Assembly: GCA_013816615.1 (NCBI GenBank)
Contig: JACDED010000004.1
Coordinates: 6,861 to 70,860 of the forward strand
Direction of reading: 5' to 3'
From: Bacteroidota bacterium
Lineage (GTDB): Bacteria; Bacteroidota; Bacteroidia; B-17B0; Aurantibacillaceae
DNA length: 64,000 nucleotides
Shown: in pieces, positions 11,788 to 62,656 of the stretch
Numbering within the stretch: position 1 is the first letter of the stretch
Layout: each line of letters begins with the position of its first letter
Notes under the pieces: model-generated
What the model was told of the DNA's origin: nothing
The model's input: the letters and a program-made list of their open reading frames with translations, nothing else
Databases searched by the model: none
Made by a program: the position numbers and the translations under genes

Positions 11788-11868
11788 GCGGGTGTGGCGT
11801 AATGGCAGCCGCACCAGACTTAGGATCTGGCGCTGAAAGGCGTGGGGGTTCGAGTCCCTTCACCCGCA
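11788..11868 (+). tRNA. tRNA-Leu, anticodon TAG
   Basis: Hand-folded cloverleaf. Acceptor stem is GCGGGTG/CACCCGC with discriminator A. The D stem is 3 bp with GG in the loop. The anticodon stem is CCAGA/TCTGG with loop CTTAGGA (U33, TAG, G37). There is a long variable arm and a TTCGAGT T-loop. The T stem needs two G-U pairs. Confidence 0.8.
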
Positions 11869-52436: not shown

Positions 52437-53264
52437 TCAGAACAAAGATGTTTGAACAATTGCCGCTTGTTTTATAACAGGCTCAATTATTTTGCTGCTA
52501 CCGGTAATATGATAGATCTCTGTTTCATAATCGCGTGTAGCAACAACAATTTTTGTATTCCCACAATGTTCCAGAAATAATTTTTGTACAAGCTGGGGAC
52601 TATTATTTTCTCTCGAAAGATGCGATAACAATAAATGACTTAAATTTTCAGATCTGTGTTTTGTAAAGATCTCTAATGCCTGAACATTGGATAAATGGCC
52701 GTGTCCACCACGAATCCTTTTTTTCAGATAGAATGGATAGCCACCTGTTTCTAAAAGTTCTTCATCATAATTGGCTTCTAAAAAAGCAGCATGGCAATTT
52801 TTAAAATTTTCAATAACATGATGGCAGGCATTTCCAATGTCGGTTAGCACACCAATATTAATACCGTTACCCGAAACAATAAAACTATAAGGATCGGCAG
52901 CGTCATGTAATTTTGGAAATGGTTTTACGGTAAGATCGCCAACAATAATATTTTCATATCCACGAAATGTTCGGATATATTGAACGCCAATATTAAGCTG
53001 GCTATTATTTAATGTAGCATTGGTAATATAAACCGGTAACTTAAATTTTTTTGATAATACTTCCACACCTTTAATGTGATCGCTATGTTCATGCGAAATA
53101 AAAATGGCTTTTACACTTTCAATGGCCAATCCCAGGCGCTTCATTCTTTTTTCAGTCTCGCGACACGAAATCCCGGCATCTATCAACACAGCCTCTTTAT
53201 CATTACCAACGTAATAACAATTGCCGTTGCTGCCTGAGTTAAGGGATGTGATAAAAAGCGACAT
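52437..53264 (-). CDS. MBL-fold metallo-hydrolase
   Basis: SGSNGNCYYV..., HEHSDH metal motif and a downstream H/D ligand pattern. Confidence 0.85.
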   Translation of the reverse strand: MSLFITSLNSGSNGNCYYVGNDKEAVLIDAGISCRETEKRMKRLGLAIESVKAIFISHEHSDHIKGVEVLSKKFKLPVYITNATLNNSQLNIGVQYIRTFRGYENIIVGDLTVKPFPKLHDAADPYSFIVSGNGINIGVLTDIGNACHHVIENFKNCHAAFLEANYDEELLETGGYPFYLKKRIRGGHGHLSNVQALEIFTKHRSENLSHLLLSHLSRENNSPQLVQKLFLEHCGNTKIVVATRDYETEIYHITGSSKIIEPVIKQAAIVQTSLF

Positions 53265-53587: not shown

Positions 53588-54019
53588 TTAAATTTTTCCG
53601 TTTATCCGTTCAAGCCCTTTAGCTATTCCGCTACGCAACAAATTACCATAACCATCATCTGGCAGCATGGCACAAAAATTATTGGCCTCTTCGTAATACA
53701 ATTTTGCTTTTGTAAGATCGTTCAGGTCTTCATGGCCTTTGGCAATATTTAGATACAGCGATGGAAAGGCGCTGGTAATATCTATACCCTGTACTTTTAA
53801 GGCATGGCTTAAAGCGGTATTATCCCATTGCAATTTTTCTGCAACTGCTTTTTTCCGGCGCGCTAAATAATGCGCTGCAATAAATTTTTCAAGATCATTA
53901 GTGCCTTCATCCCATGATTTTTGAAATAGAGCTTCCGCTTCTTCCAGTTTATTAAGACCTTCCATTTCCATGCCCTGGGCACAGAGTTTTACAATGTTAT
54001 TTTCGGGATCAAATTGCAT
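53588..54019 (-). CDS. small TPR-like helical protein, hypothetical
   Basis: 143-aa ORF with a helical-repeat character. It is co-oriented with, and downstream of, the AAA-M41 gene. Confidence 0.5.
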   Translation of the reverse strand: MQFDPENNIVKLCAQGMEMEGLNKLEEAEALFQKSWDEGTNDLEKFIAAHYLARRKKAVAEKLQWDNTALSHALKVQGIDITSAFPSLYLNIAKGHEDLNDLTKAKLYYEEANNFCAMLPDDGYGNLLRSGIAKGLERINGKI

Positions 54020-54116: not shown

Positions 54117-56156
54117 TTATACCAATAAAGGTGTTTCTATTTCTGCTATCTGCTGTTGGATCATTTTATCGAATGAAAAATAATTCTCTTTTTTTACAAA
54201 AGCATTTTTATTTATCCATTCCTCCACACTGTATTTGCAAATAAATTCGCCTATCATCTCCTCTTCCATCCTGTTATTACCGGCAAGGTATTCTGCCATT
54301 TTTAAAAGCAATAATTTATTTCTTATTAAAAGCGCTTCCGCTTCTTTTTGGCAAACAGTAATTAAGTGCATGGCTTCTTTATTATAGTGTTCTTTCGTAA
54401 AGAAGTATTCATTGCTGTTGGCACACTCTACAGCAATATGAATTGGATCGCTACCCATGGCATAATACTTAATTGCTTTATTTGCCAGCTCCGTTGCATT
54501 TTCAATATCCGAATAAACACCTGATGATGTATTATCATCGCCAAAAATTAATTTCTCAGCCACAAAACCTCCTAAAGAAATAACAATATCTTTTCTTAAA
54601 ACATCTTTAGTAAAGATCCCTTCAGGAAAATTGACCATGCAAAAACCTTCGCAATTATCACCGGCTGTTTTTGAGATCACCAAAGATGGTAGGATCCTTA
54701 AAGTTAAAGCTGCTAAAATAGCATGGCCCGCTTCGTGCACGGCAGTATGCGCCTGGATATTTTTATTGGTTGTTTTTCTTAGCTCATTGATCTTTAAATT
54801 TATTTTTTCTTCGTAAATGTTAAGAATGTTATTGGCTTCGTCTTTAAAAACAAAAACATATTTCCCATCGCAATAACCCCATTCTACAGCAGTAACCGGC
54901 ATGTTCTTTTCAATACCTTCTACAGCTATTTTTCCGATCCACGATTCTACCAGGTTTTTAACCGTGGTTAAAACCGGGCGGGTACCTTGCGCTGGAAAAA
55001 CACCTTCTTTATAAATAATATCCTTTAAAGAAAATAAATATACCAGCTCAAAACCAAATTGCGTTTTTACAAATTCATTTACGCGTCTTAATTCGCGCGC
55101 TATCAATTGTTGAAAATGCATGTTGTTAAAAGAACGGTAAATAATATGGTTATTACCTAACCTTGCTACCTGCTCGTTTCTGAAACGTTTTTTTAAAGCG
55201 CCTTTAATATTTGCAATGGTGATCTTAGAAGTTGCTTCATAAAGATCATCCGCACTGATATCAGGATTTAAGCTATGGCTCATTTGGTAAGCCTCATCCA
55301 GGTTTCCTAAAACAAAGATCAGGGCTTTTGAAAGATCTAATTGTTTCACGCCTGAACGGGTTTTAACTCCTTCCACAATTAAATGAATAATTCCTTCAAG
55401 ATCTGCTTGCTTTATTTTATTCTCAATTATTTCACGCGATGTCTCGTCGTCGTCATATAAATAGTACAAACCCTGTTCAAAATCTTTCGATAAAAAATAA
55501 TTTTCATCTAAGGCTATGCCATTTCTGCTTTCGCTCTCAAAATAAAATCCGTTAAAAATTTGCAGGAACGCTTCTTTACCATCCGTAACGGCCCCATTCT
55601 TTATACACACATATTTATCTCTTGCTAAAATTAAATTCATTAAACAAGCTTCGGCACGTTTCATATAATATTTGTTACCATTTGGAATGTAATTTATTTT
55701 GCCACTATCCAAAAGATCCCAGATCGCACGCAGTTTGTCTTTACCCAATTCATTACCGTTATTATCCAAAGTACGCGCAAATTGAAACTCATCTAAGCAG
55801 ATCACACTCGGTCTTTCATGAAAATATTCCAGATCATCTGTAAAAGTAGATTTGATCCAGCTTGCAGAATCAGATTCAAATTCACCCATATCCATTTGTG
55901 TGAAATACTTTTTGTGATCCAGCAACTCTACCAGTTTTTGTACCAAAGCTGTTTTACCTGAACCGGTCATGCCCCAAAGATTAATAACGGTTGGACGTAA
56001 TTGTGCTTTCGGAAATAAATACCAGGCACTCACCAAATTCATTACTTCATCAATAACCGAATCTAATCCTATAAAGTAGCTTTTTAATTCTGTCGAAATT
56101 TCGTTCAGCTTTTCTTTTTTGCTGATAATTTCTTTATGCAAATTATTTGTTTCCAT
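54117..56156 (-). CDS. soluble fusion of a Clp-D2-like AAA+ ATPase and an FtsH-type (M41) zinc metalloprotease domain
   Basis: N-terminal half: RPTVINLWGMTGSGKTALVQKL (Walker A in the ClpB-D2 context), ICLDEFQFA (Walker B) and RFRNEQVARLGNNHIIYRSF (parallels FRPEFLNRIDEIIVF). C-terminal third: AVHEAGHAILA (HEXXH) and LGGFVAEKLIFGDDNTSSGVYSDIENATELANKAIKYYAMG (parallels the FtsH GGRAAEE...TGASNDIERAT...GMS). No TM helix is seen. Confidence 0.8.
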   Translation of the reverse strand: METNNLHKEIISKKEKLNEISTELKSYFIGLDSVIDEVMNLVSAWYLFPKAQLRPTVINLWGMTGSGKTALVQKLVELLDHKKYFTQMDMGEFESDSASWIKSTFTDDLEYFHERPSVICLDEFQFARTLDNNGNELGKDKLRAIWDLLDSGKINYIPNGNKYYMKRAEACLMNLILARDKYVCIKNGAVTDGKEAFLQIFNGFYFESESRNGIALDENYFLSKDFEQGLYYLYDDDETSREIIENKIKQADLEGIIHLIVEGVKTRSGVKQLDLSKALIFVLGNLDEAYQMSHSLNPDISADDLYEATSKITIANIKGALKKRFRNEQVARLGNNHIIYRSFNNMHFQQLIARELRRVNEFVKTQFGFELVYLFSLKDIIYKEGVFPAQGTRPVLTTVKNLVESWIGKIAVEGIEKNMPVTAVEWGYCDGKYVFVFKDEANNILNIYEEKINLKINELRKTTNKNIQAHTAVHEAGHAILAALTLRILPSLVISKTAGDNCEGFCMVNFPEGIFTKDVLRKDIVISLGGFVAEKLIFGDDNTSSGVYSDIENATELANKAIKYYAMGSDPIHIAVECANSNEYFFTKEHYNKEAMHLITVCQKEAEALLIRNKLLLLKMAEYLAGNNRMEEEMIGEFICKYSVEEWINKNAFVKKENYFSFDKMIQQQIAEIETPLLV

Positions 56157-56179
56157 TTCTTTTTTTTTTTATTTATAAT

Positions 56180-56266
56180 GTCATTGCGAGGTTATTCTGT
56201 TTTTGCAACCAGGGCTGAAGCAATCTCTTCCACCGACCAGGTTGCTGCGCTATCGCTCGCAATGAC
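56180..56266. repeat. REP-like hairpin element (GTCATTGCGAG ... CTCGCAATGAC)
   Basis: 11-bp terminal inverted repeats plus inner GCAACC/GGTTGC pairing. The TCATTGCGAG...GAAGCAATC word pattern is a REP type I recall as common in Bacteroidota intergenic regions. Confidence 0.6.
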
Positions 56267-56285
56267 GAATTGTTTTAGTTTTTAT

Positions 56286-56915
56286 TTATTCCATGATAAA
56301 TTTTTCGCCTTTATAGATCCTCTTTGGATTTCCACGGCTTAGATCATTATTATTTTTCCATTCGCTGTTAAGTCCTTGTTCGCCGATCTTTTTCTGTTGC
56401 CATTCGGCATGCTTTATCTTTAAACGCTTAACCGCTTCATTTTTATTTTGCAATTGCGATTTATAATTATCGCAGCTGGCAAACAGTCCACTGGCTTTAT
56501 GTATAGCTCTTACGGCGGTTTCTGTTTTGTTCACATGCTGACCTCCGGACCCTGACGAACGCATCGTTTGAAAGCTGATCTCGTTTTCATTCAACTGCTG
56601 TATGTTTGCATTATTTAATTCGTTAATGCCTATATACCAGTTTTTTCGTTTATGAAATTTCCGGTGCGGGCTTTGTGCGATCCATAATAAAACACCCTGC
56701 CATGAATTTAAAAAAACATTCAGGTTCTTACCTTCCAGTTTTAAAGTAGCCGACGATAAAGTACCATTGATATCACCGGCAAAACGCGAAACAACTTCGT
56801 AATGAAATTTATTTGCTTTTGCTTCCGCTATCATTGCCTTTAAAGCCAACGCTACCGCCAAACAACATTCTGATGGGCCTTTAGCTGATGTGAGCTGTAT
56901 TATTTTTGTGTCCAT
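56286..56915 (-). CDS. prfH: peptide chain release factor H
   Basis: 209 aa with GPSECCLAV near the N-terminus, RKNWY, the GGQ loop RSSGSGGQHVNKTETAVR and a C-terminal RGNPKRIYKGEKF. It is collinear with E. coli PrfH as I recall it. Confidence 0.85.
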   Translation of the reverse strand: MDTKIIQLTSAKGPSECCLAVALALKAMIAEAKANKFHYEVVSRFAGDINGTLSSATLKLEGKNLNVFLNSWQGVLLWIAQSPHRKFHKRKNWYIGINELNNANIQQLNENEISFQTMRSSGSGGQHVNKTETAVRAIHKASGLFASCDNYKSQLQNKNEAVKRLKIKHAEWQQKKIGEQGLNSEWKNNNDLSRGNPKRIYKGEKFIME

Positions 56916-56990
56916 TTTATTTTATTTAATTTTTTTATTAATGAAGCGATGCGCCTTTGCATCTGCTTATATTTTTTACTATTACCGTTT

Positions 56991-57023
56991 TCTGCCACCC
57001 TGAACCGATTCAGGGTGACAGAT
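56991..57023. repeat. short hairpin between rtcB and prfH
   Basis: TCTGCCACCCTGAA-CCGA-TTCAGGGTGACAGA. Confidence 0.5.
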
Positions 57024-57042
57024 TAGGTAGTATTACATTTTT

Positions 57043-58446
57043 TCAACGTTTATTCATCCTGACGATCTTCGGCAAAAAGCTTCCTTCTATTTTTACAAGA
57101 TCTTGCTGGCAGCTCATAACTGTTTCAATATCCTTGTAAGCATAAGGCGCTTCTTCTACACTTCCACCAATTAGCTTAATACCCGCAGCCGTTAGCTGAT
57201 CCTTCATAAATTTTTTAGTTATACTTTCACGCGCTTCGGTTCGCGACATTTTTCTTCCTGCACCATGCGAGGCAGAATTTAATGAGCCTGGGTTTCCTAA
57301 ACCGCTCACAATAAATCCACGCGTACACATGCTGCCCGGTATAATGCCTGGTTCGCCTTTAGCTGCCGGTGTTGCACCTTTACGGTGTACAATTAATTCG
57401 CGGCCGTCATGTATTTCTTTCCATGCAAAATTGTGATGGTTCTCGATCTTCGCGATCGTATTTAATCCCATCGCACATTTCATATTTGCATGAATTACAT
57501 CATGACATGCTTTTGCATAGTCGCCTGCTAAGTTCATCGAGAGCCAGTATTCTTGCCCGGCTTCTTCATCCAGGCTTAACCAGGCTAATGATTGTGCTTC
57601 CTTTGGCAACTTACATTTTTGGCTGGCAATTTTTGTGTACATAGCTGCAATTGCTGCACCCATACCACGCGAACCGCTGTGAGTTAACAAGCCCATATAA
57701 TTTCCCGGATCTAATCCAAGTGTATTATCATCGGCAATTGTTACTTCACCGAATTCCACAAAATGGTTTCCGGTGCCCGATGTTCCTAATTGATACCGGG
57801 CTTTGTTATGCAAGCGCTTTAATAATTCTGTCGCCTGAAATTCCGGTCTCTCCAAAATCTCGTGATCAACTTCAAAATCAAGCGTGCCTTCATTTCCAAA
57901 ATGGGTACAACGGCGTAGTGCTTTTTGCAGTTCAAATTCTTTTTTGCGAATATGATCTGCAGGCAAGTCATAAATACTTAAAGCCATGCGGCAGCCAATA
58001 TCCAAACCAACACCAAAAGGGATCACAGCATTTTCCACTGCAAGTACTCCACCAATTGGCAAACCGTAACCGTAATGCGCATCGGGCATTAAAGCGCCCT
58101 TTACTGCAATTGGTAAACGAATAGCCGATTCCATTTGCTTGTAAGCATTTTGCGAAATTTGCTGTTCACCATATACATTAAAACTGCCTGTGTCCTTCAA
58201 CATATGCACTTCGTAATTGGTTTTTAATTTTGGCTTACCAACAAGGGCCCTGGCTAATGGTTCTAAAGCGTGGTGCTCAAGAAAATCTTCAGGTTTTAAA
58301 AGAACGTTTTTTAATATTTCTAGTTTTTCATCATGCGTAGCATGTTTATAATGCTTGGTCATAATATTAAGAGCCAGACTCTTTGCTATATCCGAAGGGA
58401 AATCGATCTTACGCAAGTGTTTTCCCTTCATGCGGTTTTTTCCCAT
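57043..58446 (-). CDS. rtcB: RNA-splicing ligase RtcB (3'-phosphate/5'-OH RNA ligase)
   Basis: 467 aa with LMPDAHYGYGLPIGG, GVGLDIGCRM, GTSGTGNHFVEF, HSGSRG, ENHHNFAW and GSMCT motifs of the RtcB family. Confidence 0.92.
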   Translation of the reverse strand: MGKNRMKGKHLRKIDFPSDIAKSLALNIMTKHYKHATHDEKLEILKNVLLKPEDFLEHHALEPLARALVGKPKLKTNYEVHMLKDTGSFNVYGEQQISQNAYKQMESAIRLPIAVKGALMPDAHYGYGLPIGGVLAVENAVIPFGVGLDIGCRMALSIYDLPADHIRKKEFELQKALRRCTHFGNEGTLDFEVDHEILERPEFQATELLKRLHNKARYQLGTSGTGNHFVEFGEVTIADDNTLGLDPGNYMGLLTHSGSRGMGAAIAAMYTKIASQKCKLPKEAQSLAWLSLDEEAGQEYWLSMNLAGDYAKACHDVIHANMKCAMGLNTIAKIENHHNFAWKEIHDGRELIVHRKGATPAAKGEPGIIPGSMCTRGFIVSGLGNPGSLNSASHGAGRKMSRTEARESITKKFMKDQLTAAGIKLIGGSVEEAPYAYKDIETVMSCQQDLVKIEGSFLPKIVRMNKR

Positions 58447-58632
58447 GTTTCATTTTTTGTTTCGGGCATAGATTTTCCATGACGATGTTATCGCCGATTG
58501 GATAAATGCAAAAAGCATTTTACGATCTTACCCGAAGATTTTTTTTAATAAATTATTTTTTTGTTGTTCCGGATATTTTTTCTGCCTGGCAGAAAAACTG
58601 TTCTAAACTTTATTGGGTTTAGCACAAATAAA

Positions 58633-58655
58633 AAACCCGGCTTTAAACCGGGCTG
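58633..58655 (-). terminator. candidate intrinsic terminator (minus strand)
   Basis: The minus strand reads AGCCCGGTTTAAAGCCGGGTTTTTTATTTG: a short GC stem followed by a T-run. It lies about 300 nt downstream of the thioredoxin-family gene and upstream of rtcB. Confidence 0.45.
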
Positions 58656-58952
58656 AATGTATTGATAATAGCAGACTTCCGGCTTAAGGTTTCGTATTGA
58701 ATTTTGCTACTAACATTGGTTTTTCTTTTTATTTGTTTTAAATGATTATAAATTTCTGACACAAATGTAAATGTTATTTTTTAATTAAAACAAATTAATT
58801 TTTTAAAAAAAGGTGAATTAATTTTTGAATATCTTTCTATGTCCCTCAAAACGTCAGTAAAATCAATACTCGTGAGGCTTAAGTAGAATTATTATAAATT
58901 AAATAAAATATATTCTGACTGAGTGAAGCTCTACTATTTATTTGTGAATATA

Positions 58953-59417: not shown

Positions 59418-59482
59418 GATTTTCTTTTAAAGATACATTTTTTTAAACCCATATTCACATTGTGTATTTACACGGAAATAAA

Positions 59483-60118
59483 CGCCTTGAATCGAGCCTT
59501 TTCGAAATACCTGCCTAGTCAAGGCTCAAGTGTAATTTTAGAACGGCGATAATGCCTAAATATATTAATTGCATTACGTTCTAAAATAACCAACGTGTTA
59601 AAAATTAAAACATAAATCAAATGGAATTTCTTTAAGGCCGAATACTGTGTTTGCTTACGCTGTCGATTCACATTGTGTGCTTACGCGCACTAAAAGCCGT
59701 AAGCACACAGTGGTGGTTTGGCCTCAAAGAAATTCAGTAGATTTTTTGATTTGTTTTTTCACCACGGTAATTCTAAAATGTAAATTAATTTTTGAATTTG
59801 AGCGGTTTTGCCATTTTAGAATTACACTCGAGCCCTGACTAGTCCTTATTTCCAAAGAAGCTCCATTCAGGGCGACGCTAAAAAAAGCAAATCATTAAAA
59901 ATCAAAGAATTTGTTTGTGAGCCTTGATTTTTTGTTTCTTTTTCATCAAGGAAAAAGATATGAAAGAGATTTAAGAAGCCTTTGCTTACTTGAATCAAGC
60001 CAAATTGAGTCTGGAAATATTTAAACATTTTTCATTCCACTTTTTCTTGATAAAAAGTGGAGCAAAAATCAAGGCTGCAAAGAAATTCAAGGATTTATTT
60101 GTTTTAATTTTTCGTCAT
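59483..60118. repeat. 636-bp tandem repeat unit, copy 1 (composite of several sub-modules)
   Basis: Starts CGCCTTGAATCGAGCC. The next copy starts exactly 636 bp later. Confidence 0.9.
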
Positions 60119-60614
60119 CGCCTTGAATCGAGCCTTTTCGAAATACCTGCCTAGTCAAGGCTCAAGTGTAATTTTAGAACGGCGATAATGCCTAAATATA
60201 TTAATTGCATTACGTTCTAAAATAACCAGCGTGTTAAAAATTAAAACATAAATCCAATGGAATTTCTTTAAGGCCGAATACTGTGTTTGCTTACGCTGTC
60301 GATTCACATTGTGTGCTTACGCGCACTAAAAGCCGTAAGCACACAATGGTGGAGGGGCCTCAAACAAATTCAGTAGATTTTTTGATTTGTTTTTTCACCA
60401 CGGTAATTCTAAAATGTAAATTAATTTTTGAATTTTAGCGGTTTTGCCATTTTAGAATTACACTCGAGCCCTGACTAGTCCTTATTTCTAAAGAAGCTCC
60501 ATTCAGGGCGACACTAAAAAAAGCAAATCATTAAAAATCAAAGAATTTGTTTGTGAGCCTTGATTTTTTGTTTCTTTTTCATCAAGGAAAAAGATATGAA
60601 AGAGATTTAGGAAG
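60119..60614. repeat. tandem repeat unit, copy 2 (first 496 bp of the unit)
   Basis: My manual alignment to 59483-59978 gives 11 substitutions and no indels. Similarity breaks after GATTTAGGAAG. Confidence 0.9.
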
Positions 60615-60650
60615 AAAAAAAGAGCAAACAATTAAAAATAGAATTAGTAA

Positions 60651-60692
60651 GTTCCTCCCCCGTCGCTTCGCGCCACCCCCTCTAGCGGGGGA
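60651..60692. repeat. GC-rich REP-like hairpin (CCCCCTCTAGCGGGGG)
   Basis: GTTCCTCCCCCGTCGCTTCGCGCCACCCCCTCTAGCGGGGGA. A second copy lies at 61768-61810 with a different loop (CCCCCTCCAAAGGGGG). Confidence 0.7.
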
Positions 60693-60908
60693 TACTGTGT
60701 GTGCTTACTGTTTATATCCGCGTAAGCACACAATGGTGCTTGGCATTTTAAAATTTCTCGTAAAAAAATCTTAGCCTTCAAAAGGGTTGGCTTGTGTGAA
60801 TTCTACGCGCAGGCTGGCTCAAATGTATCTTAATACATTTGCCCTCTCTCGCGAAGCGCTTAAATCATCCGGCTTTGATGGCTAATGATTTTTAGAGAAA
60901 TTTTAAGA

Positions 60909-61097
60909 AGCCTTGATTTTTTGTTTCTTTTTCATCAAGGAAAAAGATATGCAAAAGATTTAAGAAGCCTTTGCTTACTTTTGGATCAAGCCAAATTGAG
61001 CCTGGAAATTATTTAAACATTTTTCATTCCACTTTTTCTTGATAAAAAGTGGAGCAAAAATCAAGGCTGCAAAGAAATTCCAGGATTTATTTGTTTT
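60909..61097. repeat. second copy of the distal ~186 bp of the 636-bp unit
   Basis: Collinear with 59920-60105 (CCTTGAT...ATCAAGG hairpin, CCTTTGCTTACT, CCACTTTTTCTTGATAAAAAGTGG hairpin), with small indels. Confidence 0.85.
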
Positions 61098-61421
61098 TTT
61101 TTTTAAATCTTTTTAATAGGCACGCAGATGTTTCAGTTTTCCATTTTGATCTTTTGCAGAGATAGTAGCTGTCTAAGCTAGGCGTTTAGTTGAATAGGCA
61201 GATAGAAAAGAGGTTTAGACAGGCTGCGGTCTTTTTTTCGCTGTAGCTACCGCGCGAAAAAAAGAATCTCCTTCAAAAGATCGAAAGCGTTTTGGTTACT
61301 TTTGCGCGCCAAAAGTGACAAAAGAAATTTATTTTTTTTCAAAAAAGAGATTGAGGCATTTCCTCTCCCACCCTCCGGCACCCTTCCGAGGCAAACTCGG
61401 GACAAGTTCTCCAGAGAGGGA

Positions 61422-61731
61422 CATTGTATTTTGCTTACGCGGACTATACACCGTAAGCACACAATGGTGGAGTGGCCTCAAAGAAATTCAGTAGATTTTT
61501 TGATTTGTTTTTTCACCAAGGTAATTCTAAAATGTAAATTAATTTTTGAATTTGAGCGGTTTTGCCATTTTAGAATTACACTTGAGCCCTGACTAGTCTT
61601 TATTTCCAAAGAAGCTCCATTCAGGGCGACGCTAAAAAAAGCAAATCATTAAAATCAAAGAATTTCTTTGTGAGCCTTGATTTTTTGTTTCTTTTTCATC
61701 AAGGAAAAAGATATGCAAAAGATTTAGGAAG
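61422..61731. repeat. third, 5'-truncated copy of the repeat unit
   Basis: Collinear with 59671-59978, from the GCTTACG hairpin through the right inverted repeat and the CCTTGAT hairpin. The hairpin's left arm and loop have diverged. Confidence 0.85.
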
Positions 61732-61767
61732 AAAAAAGTGAGCACAGAATTAAAATAGAATTAGTAA

Positions 61768-61810
61768 GTTCCTCCCCCGTCGCTTCGCGCCACCCCCTCC
61801 AAAGGGGGAC
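61768..61810. repeat. GC-rich REP-like hairpin, second copy
   Basis: GTTCCTCCCCCGTCGCTTCGCGCCACCCCCTCCAAAGGGGGAC. It is preceded by the same AAAATAGAATTAGTAA leader as the copy at 60651. Confidence 0.7.
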
Positions 61811-62168
61811 ACTGAGTGCATTTAATGCAATAAACCCACCACTTGCAAAACAAAAACTACCTCTTATTGAAAGCAATAATTTGCAAGCTCAAAAATAAAT
61901 AACTTTGATCTGTAACTAATGTTCACTTTTTAAATTATATGGTTATGAAACAGATTCTTATAGACGCAGGTACCTACCTCAGCATTGCCGCACTTCTTTT
62001 ATTAGGTTACGGTTTTTTCTTACTTACTATCAGCTAATATTTTGCATCCGGCACACTGTAAATTAAGAGATTTAATTACTCTTAATTTACATTCTTTGCC
62101 TTCATTATTCTGATCGTATTTGTAAGTACCCAATATGGGTTAACCTTAAACAAATTCTTTACAGTTTA

Positions 62169-62340
62169 TAGTTCGCGTGAGCAAACACAGCATAGCGGCC
62201 TTATAAAATTGAACGTTAAAAAATTTTTTTGGCTTTAATTGCGAAAGCGAAAATTTTCCGAACTAGGAGTTCAGTAGCTTCGTGATAAATTTTCGTGCGG
62301 TTTGCGCGGGGAAGCCATGCTGTTTGAGAGCACACGAATT
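62169..62340. repeat. ~170-bp nested inverted-repeat element
   Basis: The outer arms AGTTCGCGTGAGCAAACACAGCATAGCGGCC (62169-62199) and GGAAGCCATGCTGTTTGAGAGCACACGAATT (62310-62340) are imperfect reverse complements. Inner pairs are CGAAAATTT/AAATTTTCG and GAACT-AGG-AGTTC. Confidence 0.55.
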
Positions 62341-62656
62341 TTACCCTGGCTCGAGTTCATGGCTTCAGCTTAAAGCAAAAAGATTTTAGTTCAATTTTAT
62401 GAAGCCTTGACTTTTTTAGTTCCAAACGCACTGTCCGGCTCAATGCTATCGCATTGCCCTTTGTTAAGACAAAAAGTGACGCCAAAATTCATAAGCAAAA
62501 AAGTGAGAACAGAATTAAGAAACTATTTTAATTTCTTTTTAATCCACTTTTTCTTGATAAAAAGTGAAGCAAACAAACCACTCAACAAACTATACCACTT
62601 ATAAAAATGTATTTAAACACTCTAATAAATACATATCTTTGAAATGATCAAACATT

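Follow-up and report, generated by a model that had tools for sequence, protein, structure and literature searches.

To our knowledge, the PrfH/RtcB pathway is the only one known by which ribosomes cut in the decoding centre are repaired rather than replaced. Here, we describe an operon built around this pair in a 64,000-nucleotide stretch of contig JACDED010000004.1 of a Bacteroidota bacterium (hereafter referred to as the window), in which the genes for the RNA ligase RtcB and release factor H (PrfH or RFH) are followed by a gene coding for an AAA+/M41 protease. In E. coli, PrfH and RtcB2 rescue and repair ribosomes that have been cut by colicin E3 (PMC9304027, PMC9223846), with RtcB2 acting on the damaged small subunit once rescue and dismantling of the ribosome are complete (PMC12829566, PMC9304027). 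An early hypothesis considered RFH and the product of the gene upstream as a possible toxin/antidote balance (PMC1586002). PrfH-RtcB modules have also been viewed as counter-conflict systems that gain accessory genes, and the main text of the 2019 survey by Burroughs and Aravind names a TPR protein, a Pol-beta nucleotidyltransferase and zinc-finger/charged proteins as accessories of RFH-RtcB (PMC6514570). In P. aeruginosa, the leader peptide PA5471.1 was proposed to control the RtcB-like gene armZ and the adjacent prfH (PA5470) by attenuation, with read-through of predicted terminators upon exposure to ribosome-targeting antibiotics and upon other ribosome defects; ArmZ has there been co-opted as an anti-repressor of MexZ (PMC12057347).

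As the initial annotation of the window had reported, rtcB, prfH and the AAA+/M41 gene are co-oriented on the minus strand, with coordinates and gaps of 127 bp (rtcB-prfH) and 129 bp (prfH-protease) exactly as given there (Table 1). The annotation had further suggested that they may form a three-component system, a proposal that holds in part: RtcB and PrfH are indeed the recurrent neighbours of the protease, but PrfH is absent from about 20 linked loci and the protease itself is dispensable. Judged from the comparisons described below, the three genes very probably represent a conserved, co-inherited unit that is co-transcribed, and the view that the protease is a selectively retained member of this unit in one large Bacteroidota clade is well supported, as are the linkage of the genes and their co-regulation.

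Twenty relatives of the protease were aligned and used for a profile scan of one genome per GTDB species, which yielded 234 relatives. The best 80 of these 234 loci were kept with flanks of up to 8 kb per side, and neighbouring genes were called by tblastn and by all-against-all clustering of the open reading frames (ORFs) in the 80 loci, ten of which were uninformative. The only recurrent neighbours of the protease were RtcB (42 loci by clustering) and PrfH (19 loci by clustering, 21 by tblastn), the next cluster being present in eight loci. RtcB is encoded directly upstream and in the same orientation in around 43 of around 70 informative loci, and PrfH lies between the two in around 21 of them, which is far from the near-absence of adjacency that, according to the initial annotation, would have spoken against a link. 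The arrangement thus exceeds chance by a wide margin. Three arrangements can be distinguished: RtcB, PrfH and protease in series (type (a), 19 loci and two further ones cut by contig ends), RtcB followed by the protease without PrfH (type (b), 20 loci and two atypical ones), and neither RtcB nor PrfH despite at least 2.2 kb of upstream sequence (type (c), 27 loci). RtcB, not PrfH, is the constant partner of the protease, since PrfH is missing from around 20 linked loci, and in all linked loci the operon ends with the protease gene. By the titles of the records, the linked block spans several groups of Bacteroidota and one metagenome-assembled genome (MAG) of the Ignavibacteria, a locus that may reflect transfer (L019). 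Two other loci, L007 (Hydrocarboniphaga by title) and L075 (Hyphomicrobiales by title), look like mis-binned contigs, judged from their protease identities (65% and 36%, respectively) and their Bacteroidota-like context.

In a neighbour-joining, midpoint-rooted tree of the protease, one large clade comprises 54 loci and is linked to RtcB in 41 of its 52 informative members. The deep branches (22 loci, 36-50% identity) all lack RtcB, and none of their 16 informative members is linked. Type (a) loci are found at the base of the large clade and in one full subclade, and the titles of the type (b) subclade include Ohtaekwangia, Chryseolinea, Chryseosolibacter, Flammeovirgaceae and Cyclobacteriaceae. 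This distribution points to a loss of PrfH from the operon in the type (b) subclade, which is a tentative reading because the tree method is simple. The pairwise identities of protease and RtcB are correlated (r = 0.80, 703 pairs); this argues for co-inheritance of both proteins, not for a shared function. The flanking genes change from locus to locus, while the block is still present at 48% protease identity. Metagenome contigs were also scanned with the DNA of the leader region upstream of rtcB, a sampling independent of the protease; nine loci were returned, and all five that were long enough showed the order leader, RtcB, PrfH and protease.

The linkage was also approached from the side of PrfH, using eight PrfH relatives picked because they lacked a contig of the same size among the listed protease relatives. 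An M41 gene was found directly downstream of PrfH in three of these eight, and the protease was absent in the other five, which makes it a frequent but dispensable companion of the Bacteroidota pair of a 467-aa RtcB and PrfH. A MAG of Azobacteroides, for instance, carries the series Band_7-RtcB-RlaP-RlaP-YjbQ-RtcB-PrfH without the protease, and three other sampled relatives have either the bare pair or the pair with an RNA ligase. For at least 26 further PrfH relatives, the longest contig has the same size as that of a protease relative among the 120 listed, an indirect sign that PrfH and protease share a contig in these genomes.

The system had been taken to begin at rtcB; however, the operon starts around 320 bp further upstream, at a leader-peptide attenuator. 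In almost every linked locus, 300-1100 bp ahead of rtcB are free of ORFs, and the 506 bp ahead of rtcB in the window match 17 other loci at the DNA level (nhmmer E-values of 1e-37 to 1e-6). This region contains a predicted promoter of the Bacteroidota type, with a -33 TTG(ac) and a -7 box TACATTTG that is conserved in register in all aligned relatives. This box is the only TAnnTTTG on the minus strand between 53.0 and 58.8 kb, and no other consensus promoter box was found inside the operon; a scan for sigma-70 promoters was uninformative, as it is for Bacteroidota in general (20 found, 20.5 expected). The promoter is followed by a short leader ORF, a conserved GCCGGA segment, an intrinsic terminator, which is the sole canonical one of the region in a terminator scan (58654-58630), and a 5' untranslated region (UTR) with two conserved hairpins. 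A pattern combining TAnnTTTG with the leader ORF (25-80 nt upstream of M[LM][VAE]xxx[HNT][TIK]x(2-6)stop) matched exactly once in each of 34 type (a) and (b) loci, in each case at the head of the operon, and nowhere else in those loci of around 18 kb, once in the 64-kb window, and not at all in the deep-branch loci. The consensus of the leader peptide is MLVLNLHTKP* in type (a) loci and MLVLSLHIPK*, or a 14-codon form running to the next in-frame stop, in type (b) loci. Ten codons are the usual length and 14 codons are found in six of 32 distinct sequences, the frame being kept. Across the 32 distinct versions, the codons turn over (TTA, TTG or CTG for Leu2, GTA, GTG or GTC for Val3 and six codons for Leu4), and His7 is present in 26 of them. 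This pattern of substitutions indicates that the leader ORF is under coding constraint and, hence, predicts that it is translated.

Leader and terminator also precede rtcB-prfH pairs that lack the protease; thus, the leader belongs to the rtcB-prfH pair. Conversely, the leader is located 258-295 nt directly ahead of the protease gene in three loci without rtcB, namely L038 (Chryseolinea serpens DSM 24574), L055 and L028. In L028 (461-766), a remnant of around 25 codons of rtcB (MGNQKLNTKDL...) is left between leader and protease gene. Judging from this arrangement, the three lineages have lost the ligase gene from the locus and kept the leader and the protease gene.

The terminator is shared by all 16 aligned leaders of the window type and has eight conserved pairs; no compensatory pairs were detected in it by covariation among these 16 sequences. 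A candidate antiterminator is formed by the nine bases UUAAGCCGG, which overlap the stop codon of the leader ORF, and CCGGUUUAA, which comprises the 5' arm and the loop of the terminator. Both segments are pairable in 91% of sequence-by-pair cells, compared to 11-55% when they are slid against each other, and the bases involved barely vary and show no covariation. A second candidate helix, between the start of the leader ORF and a downstream segment, is pairable in 74% of cells, likewise without decisive covariation. In type (b) leaders, a hairpin lies directly after the stop codon or overlaps it and shows compensatory changes in five of 17 predicted pairs; the U-tract is less canonical in the leaders of the prfH-less loci. 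The hairpins of the 5' UTR carry changes that preserve pairing (e.g. AATCTT/AAGATT and AATCA/TGATT), and the whole leader folds with a z-score of -5.1. Rfam searches, which were permissive over the region and used gathering scores over the whole window, returned nothing relevant, i.e., only miRNA-like hairpin matches besides a weak, sub-threshold Trp_leader-like match (23.9 bits) in the terminator region. A tRNA-like RNA has been reported for Band-7/RtcB systems; none was detected upstream of rtcB by ARAGORN.

Table 1. Features of the rtcB-prfH-protease operon in the window (positions count from the first letter of the window)
Feature	Position	Strand	Details
Predicted Bacteroidota-type promoter	58762..58794	-	-33 TTTG (58794-58791); -7 box TACATTTG (58769-58762)
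Leader ORF MLVAKFNTKP*	58684..58716	-	10 codons; ATG ~45 nt after the promoter box
Intrinsic terminator (attenuator)	58630..58654	-	AGCCCGGTTTAAAGCCGGGTT followed by T-run; G+C stem and T6
Remaining 5' UTR	58447..58629	-	~180 nt; two conserved hairpins (~58597-58576 and 58539-58524)
rtcB (RNA 3'-phosphate/5'-OH ligase)	57043..58446	-	467 aa; from the ORF list
Hairpin in the rtcB-prfH gap	56991..57022	-	14-bp stem; fold z = -8.2; no U-tract
prfH (release factor H)	56286..56915	-	209 aa; GGQ present
Structured insert in the prfH-protease gap	56180..56266	-	11-bp closing inverted repeat around 65 nt; z = -4.1; no U-tract
AAA+/M41 protease gene	54117..56156	-	679 aa; from the ORF list
Hairpin directly 3' of the protease stop codon	54083..54114	-	14-bp stem; z = -3.4; no U-tract; putative terminator

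The hairpins between the genes of the operon are real and peculiar to this genome. Each of the two gaps does contain a hairpin element, as noted initially and borne out by the fold z-scores of -8.2 and -4.1; however, the further observation that a strong hairpin follows only the last gene is not sustained, since the z-score there (-3.4) is no stronger than that of the hairpin in the rtcB-prfH gap. Nor are hairpin-bearing gaps a trait of the system, because the gaps of relatives measure roughly -20 to +30 bp. In ORF calls started at ATG, the RtcB-PrfH gap of relatives is mostly 4-73 bp (range -50 to 138), the PrfH-protease gap is -32 to +33 bp in 15 of 18 type (a) loci for which ORFs of the two genes could be called, and RtcB and protease are separated by 2-7 bp in 14 of the 20 type (b) loci; in tblastn, the alignments of PrfH stop 8-83 nt (median ~14 nt) ahead of the protease start. 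As the PrfH and protease genes of relatives abut or overlap, the gaps of 127 and 129 bp are lineage-specific insertions of hairpins into a tight operon. When tested as repeat elements, the hairpins each proved to be present as a single copy in the 64-kb window. The gap hairpins are unlikely to be efficient terminators, since they lack a T-run, unlike the leader attenuator, which has a normal one; they could modulate stability or relative expression.

The two upstream genes code for well-recognizable proteins (scores are given with the cut-off of the respective model). RtcB matches PF01139 of Pfam (277 bits, cut-off 27), and its motifs PDAH, DIGC, GNHF, HSGSRG, HHN and HGAGR align with those of RtcB from P. 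horikoshii and T. thermophilus. It stays below the cut-offs of the proteobacterial PrfH-linked subfamily (TIGR03073, 155.4 versus 271.8; NF007153, 183.3 versus 407) and thus belongs to an RtcB lineage of its own, which pairs with PrfH as well. PrfH reaches 222.3 bits with the equivalog model TIGR03072 (cut-off 166.65) and carries the GGQ hydrolase motif within SGSGGQHVNKT. With the ligase gene 127 bp upstream on the same strand, an order kept in around 21 related loci, it also has the genomic context of a PrfH. Its alignment with the solved PrfH chains 9mor and 7sa4 covers their full length, whereas RF2 is matched in its C-terminal two-thirds only; the N-terminal domain of RF1/RF2 is absent. 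Its nearest solved relative is PrfH of C. gingivalis (9mor, 186 bits). PrfH of the window stops where the extra C-terminal tail of the C. gingivalis protein starts and is thus of the 'short' type.

The third protein combines parts of two protease machineries. Peptidase_M41 (PF01434) is found with 62.4 bits (29.9) and a P-loop AAA module (PF00004) with 21.5 bits (21.2). The second ATPase ring (D2) of ClpB, ClpC and ClpE is matched by residues 12-95 and 316-442, including the N-terminal linker, Walker A/B, the FRxExxxR region, the sensor-2 GxRP and the D2-small domain. The M41 domains of YME1 and FtsH are matched by residues 463-640, with a zinc site formed by HEAGH 474-478 and D550 as the third ligand. 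Walker A/B, the sensor-1 Asn, three Arg, the sensor-2 Arg, HExxH and Asp550 are invariant in 77 of 77 full-length relatives, linked or unlinked, and the zinc-peptidase residues H474, E475, H478 and D550 are unchanged across the 77 sequences. No transmembrane segment was found, the sole hydrophobic stretch being the HExxH helix. The AlphaFold model (pLDDT 74.6) matches FtsH, YME1 and AFG3L2 overall, and the isolated FtsH protease domain aligns to it with a TM-score of 0.81. Between Walker B and sensor-1, an insert of around 115 aa (157-272) is present; modelled alone (pLDDT 71) and compared with the PDB, it gave only matches with E > 4, i.e., no structural relative. The protein is not an FtsH: it reaches 52.5 with TIGR01241 (600) and has neither a membrane anchor nor a classical AAA module. 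No NCBIfam or Pfam family spans it entirely, and the libraries searched hold no dedicated model. Public names for it are 'hypothetical protein' or 'FtsH', and a metagenome-assembled 'Bacteroidetes bacterium' has an entry for an identical protein of 679 aa. Alignments and model thus portray the protein as a soluble chimera of a Clp-D2-type motor and an FtsH-type peptidase without a membrane anchor.

How might these parts work together? We put forward, as a reading whose chances we consider balanced, that promoter, leader attenuator, rtcB, prfH and the protease gene constitute one translation-stress operon, in which the protease is responsible for the clean-up of incomplete chains. By analogy, the leader probably senses ribosome impairment. 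With healthy ribosomes, the leader would be translated fast and the ribosome at the stop codon would cover UUAAGCCGG, so that the terminator forms and the operon is off. When ribosomes are damaged or stalled, for instance by rRNA-cutting toxins or ribosome-targeting antibiotics, translation of the leader would fail or stall early, the antiterminator would pre-empt the terminator, and the three genes would be transcribed; this polarity of the switch is hypothesized from the sequence. As suggested by work on the E. coli pair, PrfH would then free the peptide from ribosomes with a damaged decoding centre and RtcB would reseal the cut rRNA. Release by PrfH, unlike that by tmRNA, adds no degradation tag. 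The AAA+ metalloprotease, which is of a hexameric type, would dispose of the incomplete polypeptides left by the rescue through unfolding and degradation, and might treat other protein obstacles on stalled ribosomes in the same way. In an extended version, which we regard as doubtful, the operon would be a self-contained pathway of damage sensing, rescue and quality control, with the leader peptide reporting ribosome health and the protease acting directly on stalled ribosome complexes, from which it would pull out and degrade nascent chains or bound proteins in a manner resembling Vms1-Cdc48-proteasome, and standing in for PrfH where the latter was lost.

Several observations weigh against the translation-stress operon with a clean-up protease. 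The protease is absent from five of the eight sampled PrfH relatives, and its deep branches lack an RNA-repair context, so that it may be merely a general stress protease that was recruited to the operon. The stretch that holds the GYVG pore loop in the D2 rings of Hsp100 proteins, which spans around 44 residues in ClpB, comprises 33 aa in the protease and thus appears around 11 residues shorter, so that threading need not be processive. Untagged substrates would have to be recognized in some way, and the insert of around 115 aa, which lacks a structural relative, might serve this purpose. In the window, the long gaps with their stable hairpins could reduce expression of the downstream genes. 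The RNA switch is a hypothesis built on conservation and pairing potential, and that proteins arising from or obstructing stalled ribosomes are dealt with by the protease is, as with every functional step proposed for it, something that we infer.

Other roles of the protease can be envisaged. It might remodel ribosomes by extracting or degrading ribosomal proteins or factors, or by splitting stalled complexes, to give RtcB access to the cut rRNA or to dismantle particles beyond repair, and would then partly replace PrfH in operons without prfH. Such a role, which we consider unlikely, would agree with RtcB being the constant partner, with the around 20 loci in which rtcB and the protease gene occur without prfH (gaps of 2-7 bp in 14 of them), with the persistence of leader and protease in the absence of rtcB and with the order of events in E. 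coli, where rescue and dismantling come before the action of RtcB2 on the damaged small subunit (PMC12829566, PMC9304027). However, the E. coli system needs no such factor, neither profile searches nor the structure search with the insert detected an RNA- or ribosome-binding domain in the protease, and the canonical pore loop appears shortened. It is highly unlikely, in our view, that the protease degrades incoming ribotoxins such as colicin E3-like, contact-dependent inhibition (CDI) or type VI secretion system (T6SS) rRNases while RtcB and PrfH carry out the repair. Induction of the protease would follow from the same stress signal as that of the repair pair, and accessories are part of the counter-conflict view of these modules as set out in the text of PMC6514570; yet PADLOC defence models gave only a weak P-loop match for the protease (DolB, 25 bits) and nothing for RtcB, no relatives of the protease were found in plasmid and phage collections, its deep branches do not lie in conflict contexts, and an identity of 55-75% across orders is not the diversification that toxin recognition would predict.

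With just as little probability, the protease might be regulatory and reset the response after stress by degrading an inhibitor or RtcB and PrfH themselves, whose unscheduled ligation or release would be hazardous. The 3'-terminal position of its gene in the operon and the early idea of a toxin/antidote relation between RFH and the product of the upstream gene (PMC1586002) fit this model, but it is hard to explain why leader and protease are kept where rtcB and prfH are gone from the locus if these were the sole substrates, and many rtcB-prfH pairs manage without the protease. Least probable to us is that the genes are mere neighbours, i.e., that a general stress protease happens to lie downstream and the synteny was inherited within one clade. 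Confinement of the linkage to a single protease clade, the unlinked deep branches and an identity correlation that speaks for co-inheritance only are what would be expected in this case; however, the block has survived the turnover of all its other neighbours and is found down to 48% protease identity, the intergenic distances are operon-like, and the leader was kept ahead of the protease after the loss of rtcB.

In subsets of the loci, further genes of RNA repair are located near the operon, namely two tandem RlaP nucleotidyltransferases, an RNA ligase (PF09414) with an HD-kinase, and a Band_7 protein with a second RtcB paralogue. Such RNA-repair islands are seen in L015, L018, L024, L032 and L035 (upstream of rtcB), in L016, L025, L030, L036 and L065, and in L014, L021 and L034; the window contains none of these genes. 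TPR genes accompany some RFH-RtcB pairs. In Aquimarina (L081/L082, 4541-7846), RtcB and a PrfH of the long-tail type (231 aa) are followed by a TPR protein and an RNase_T-family exonuclease without a protease, with a longer leader-like ORF and a terminator located ahead of this series. In the window, an ORF of 143 aa with weak TPR-like matches (53588-54019, minus strand) follows the protease gene at a distance of 97 bp, and no consensus promoter box separates the two; it was rejected as a fourth component, being absent from all 80 loci and unrelated to the TPR protein of Aquimarina (E = 0.18). The thioredoxin-like and metallo-beta-lactamase (MBL)-fold neighbours were likewise dismissed, as they are not conserved in the 80 loci; the MBL-fold protein, encoded two genes downstream (52437-53264, minus strand), is weakly similar to the N-termini of RNase Z and RNase J. 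Upstream of the gene neighbouring the operon, a stretch of 3.2 kb (59420-62650) is poor in ORFs and built of long direct repeats with a period of around 636 bp (59483-59900 and 60119-60536 at 96-98% identity, with a third partial copy at 61432-61654). It also harbours a 98-nt unit at 60015 and 61007 and dozens of inverted repeats of 35-48 nt, and Rfam gave only sub-threshold long-hairpin matches for it. The sole Rfam match above the gathering score in the window is a tRNA (11788-11868, plus strand).

The findings suggest that ribosome repair has a protein clean-up arm, of which no description was found in the literature. The two novel aspects are the protease as a member of an RtcB/PrfH operon and the leader, which would extend the attenuator idea of the PA5471.1 type to Bacteroidota. 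The protease of the operon points to an answer to the question of how untagged, truncated proteins released by PrfH are disposed of, and the leader peptide points to one for damage sensing outside the proteobacteria; the leader could also be put to use as a natural reporter for damaged ribosomes in Bacteroidota. Cultured carriers exist in Ohtaekwangia koreensis DSM 25262, Chryseolinea serpens DSM 24574 and Chryseosolibacter histidini. A literature search for RtcB with an M41 or FtsH partner returned nothing relevant, in line with the initial annotation, which was not aware of a protease partner of prfH-rtcB, though the comparative surveys of Burroughs and Aravind may list such a neighbour.

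Among the described systems, rtcB2-prfH of E. coli shares with the operon of the window the two core activities and the order rtcB then prfH (PMC9304027, PMC9223846, PMC13166195), but is described as a two-gene operon without a protease, whereas the window adds the AAA+/M41 protease and the leader-peptide attenuator and has an RtcB outside TIGR03073. The PA5471.1-armZ-prfH system resembles it in architecture, with a short, constitutively translated leader ORF and downstream terminators ahead of an RtcB-family gene and then prfH, and differs in that no protease gene was reported there. The RFH-RtcB neighbourhoods described in PMC6514570 likewise show a two-gene core that accretes accessories, and their TPR type is seen here in Aquimarina; however, the main text of that survey names no AAA+ or M41 protease. 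Regarding the protease, a C-terminal M41 fold with HExxH and a third Asp, the order of ATPase and peptidase and the best structural matches connect it to FtsH, YME1 and AFG3L2, from which it differs by its Hsp100/ClpB-D2-type ATPase with the large insert and by the lack of a membrane anchor. The D2 rings of ClpB, ClpC and ClpE share its linker, Walker A/B, FRxExxxR, sensor-2 GxRP and D2-small domain, but the protease of the window is single-ringed, fused to its own peptidase and equipped with the insert and a pore-loop stretch that appears shorter than the spacing known for ClpB. In functional terms, the closest analogies are the proteolysis of tmRNA-tagged proteins and eukaryotic ribosome-associated quality control (Vms1 with Cdc48), in which peptide release is coupled to the handling of the released product, as might also be the case for PrfH and the protease encoded downstream of it.

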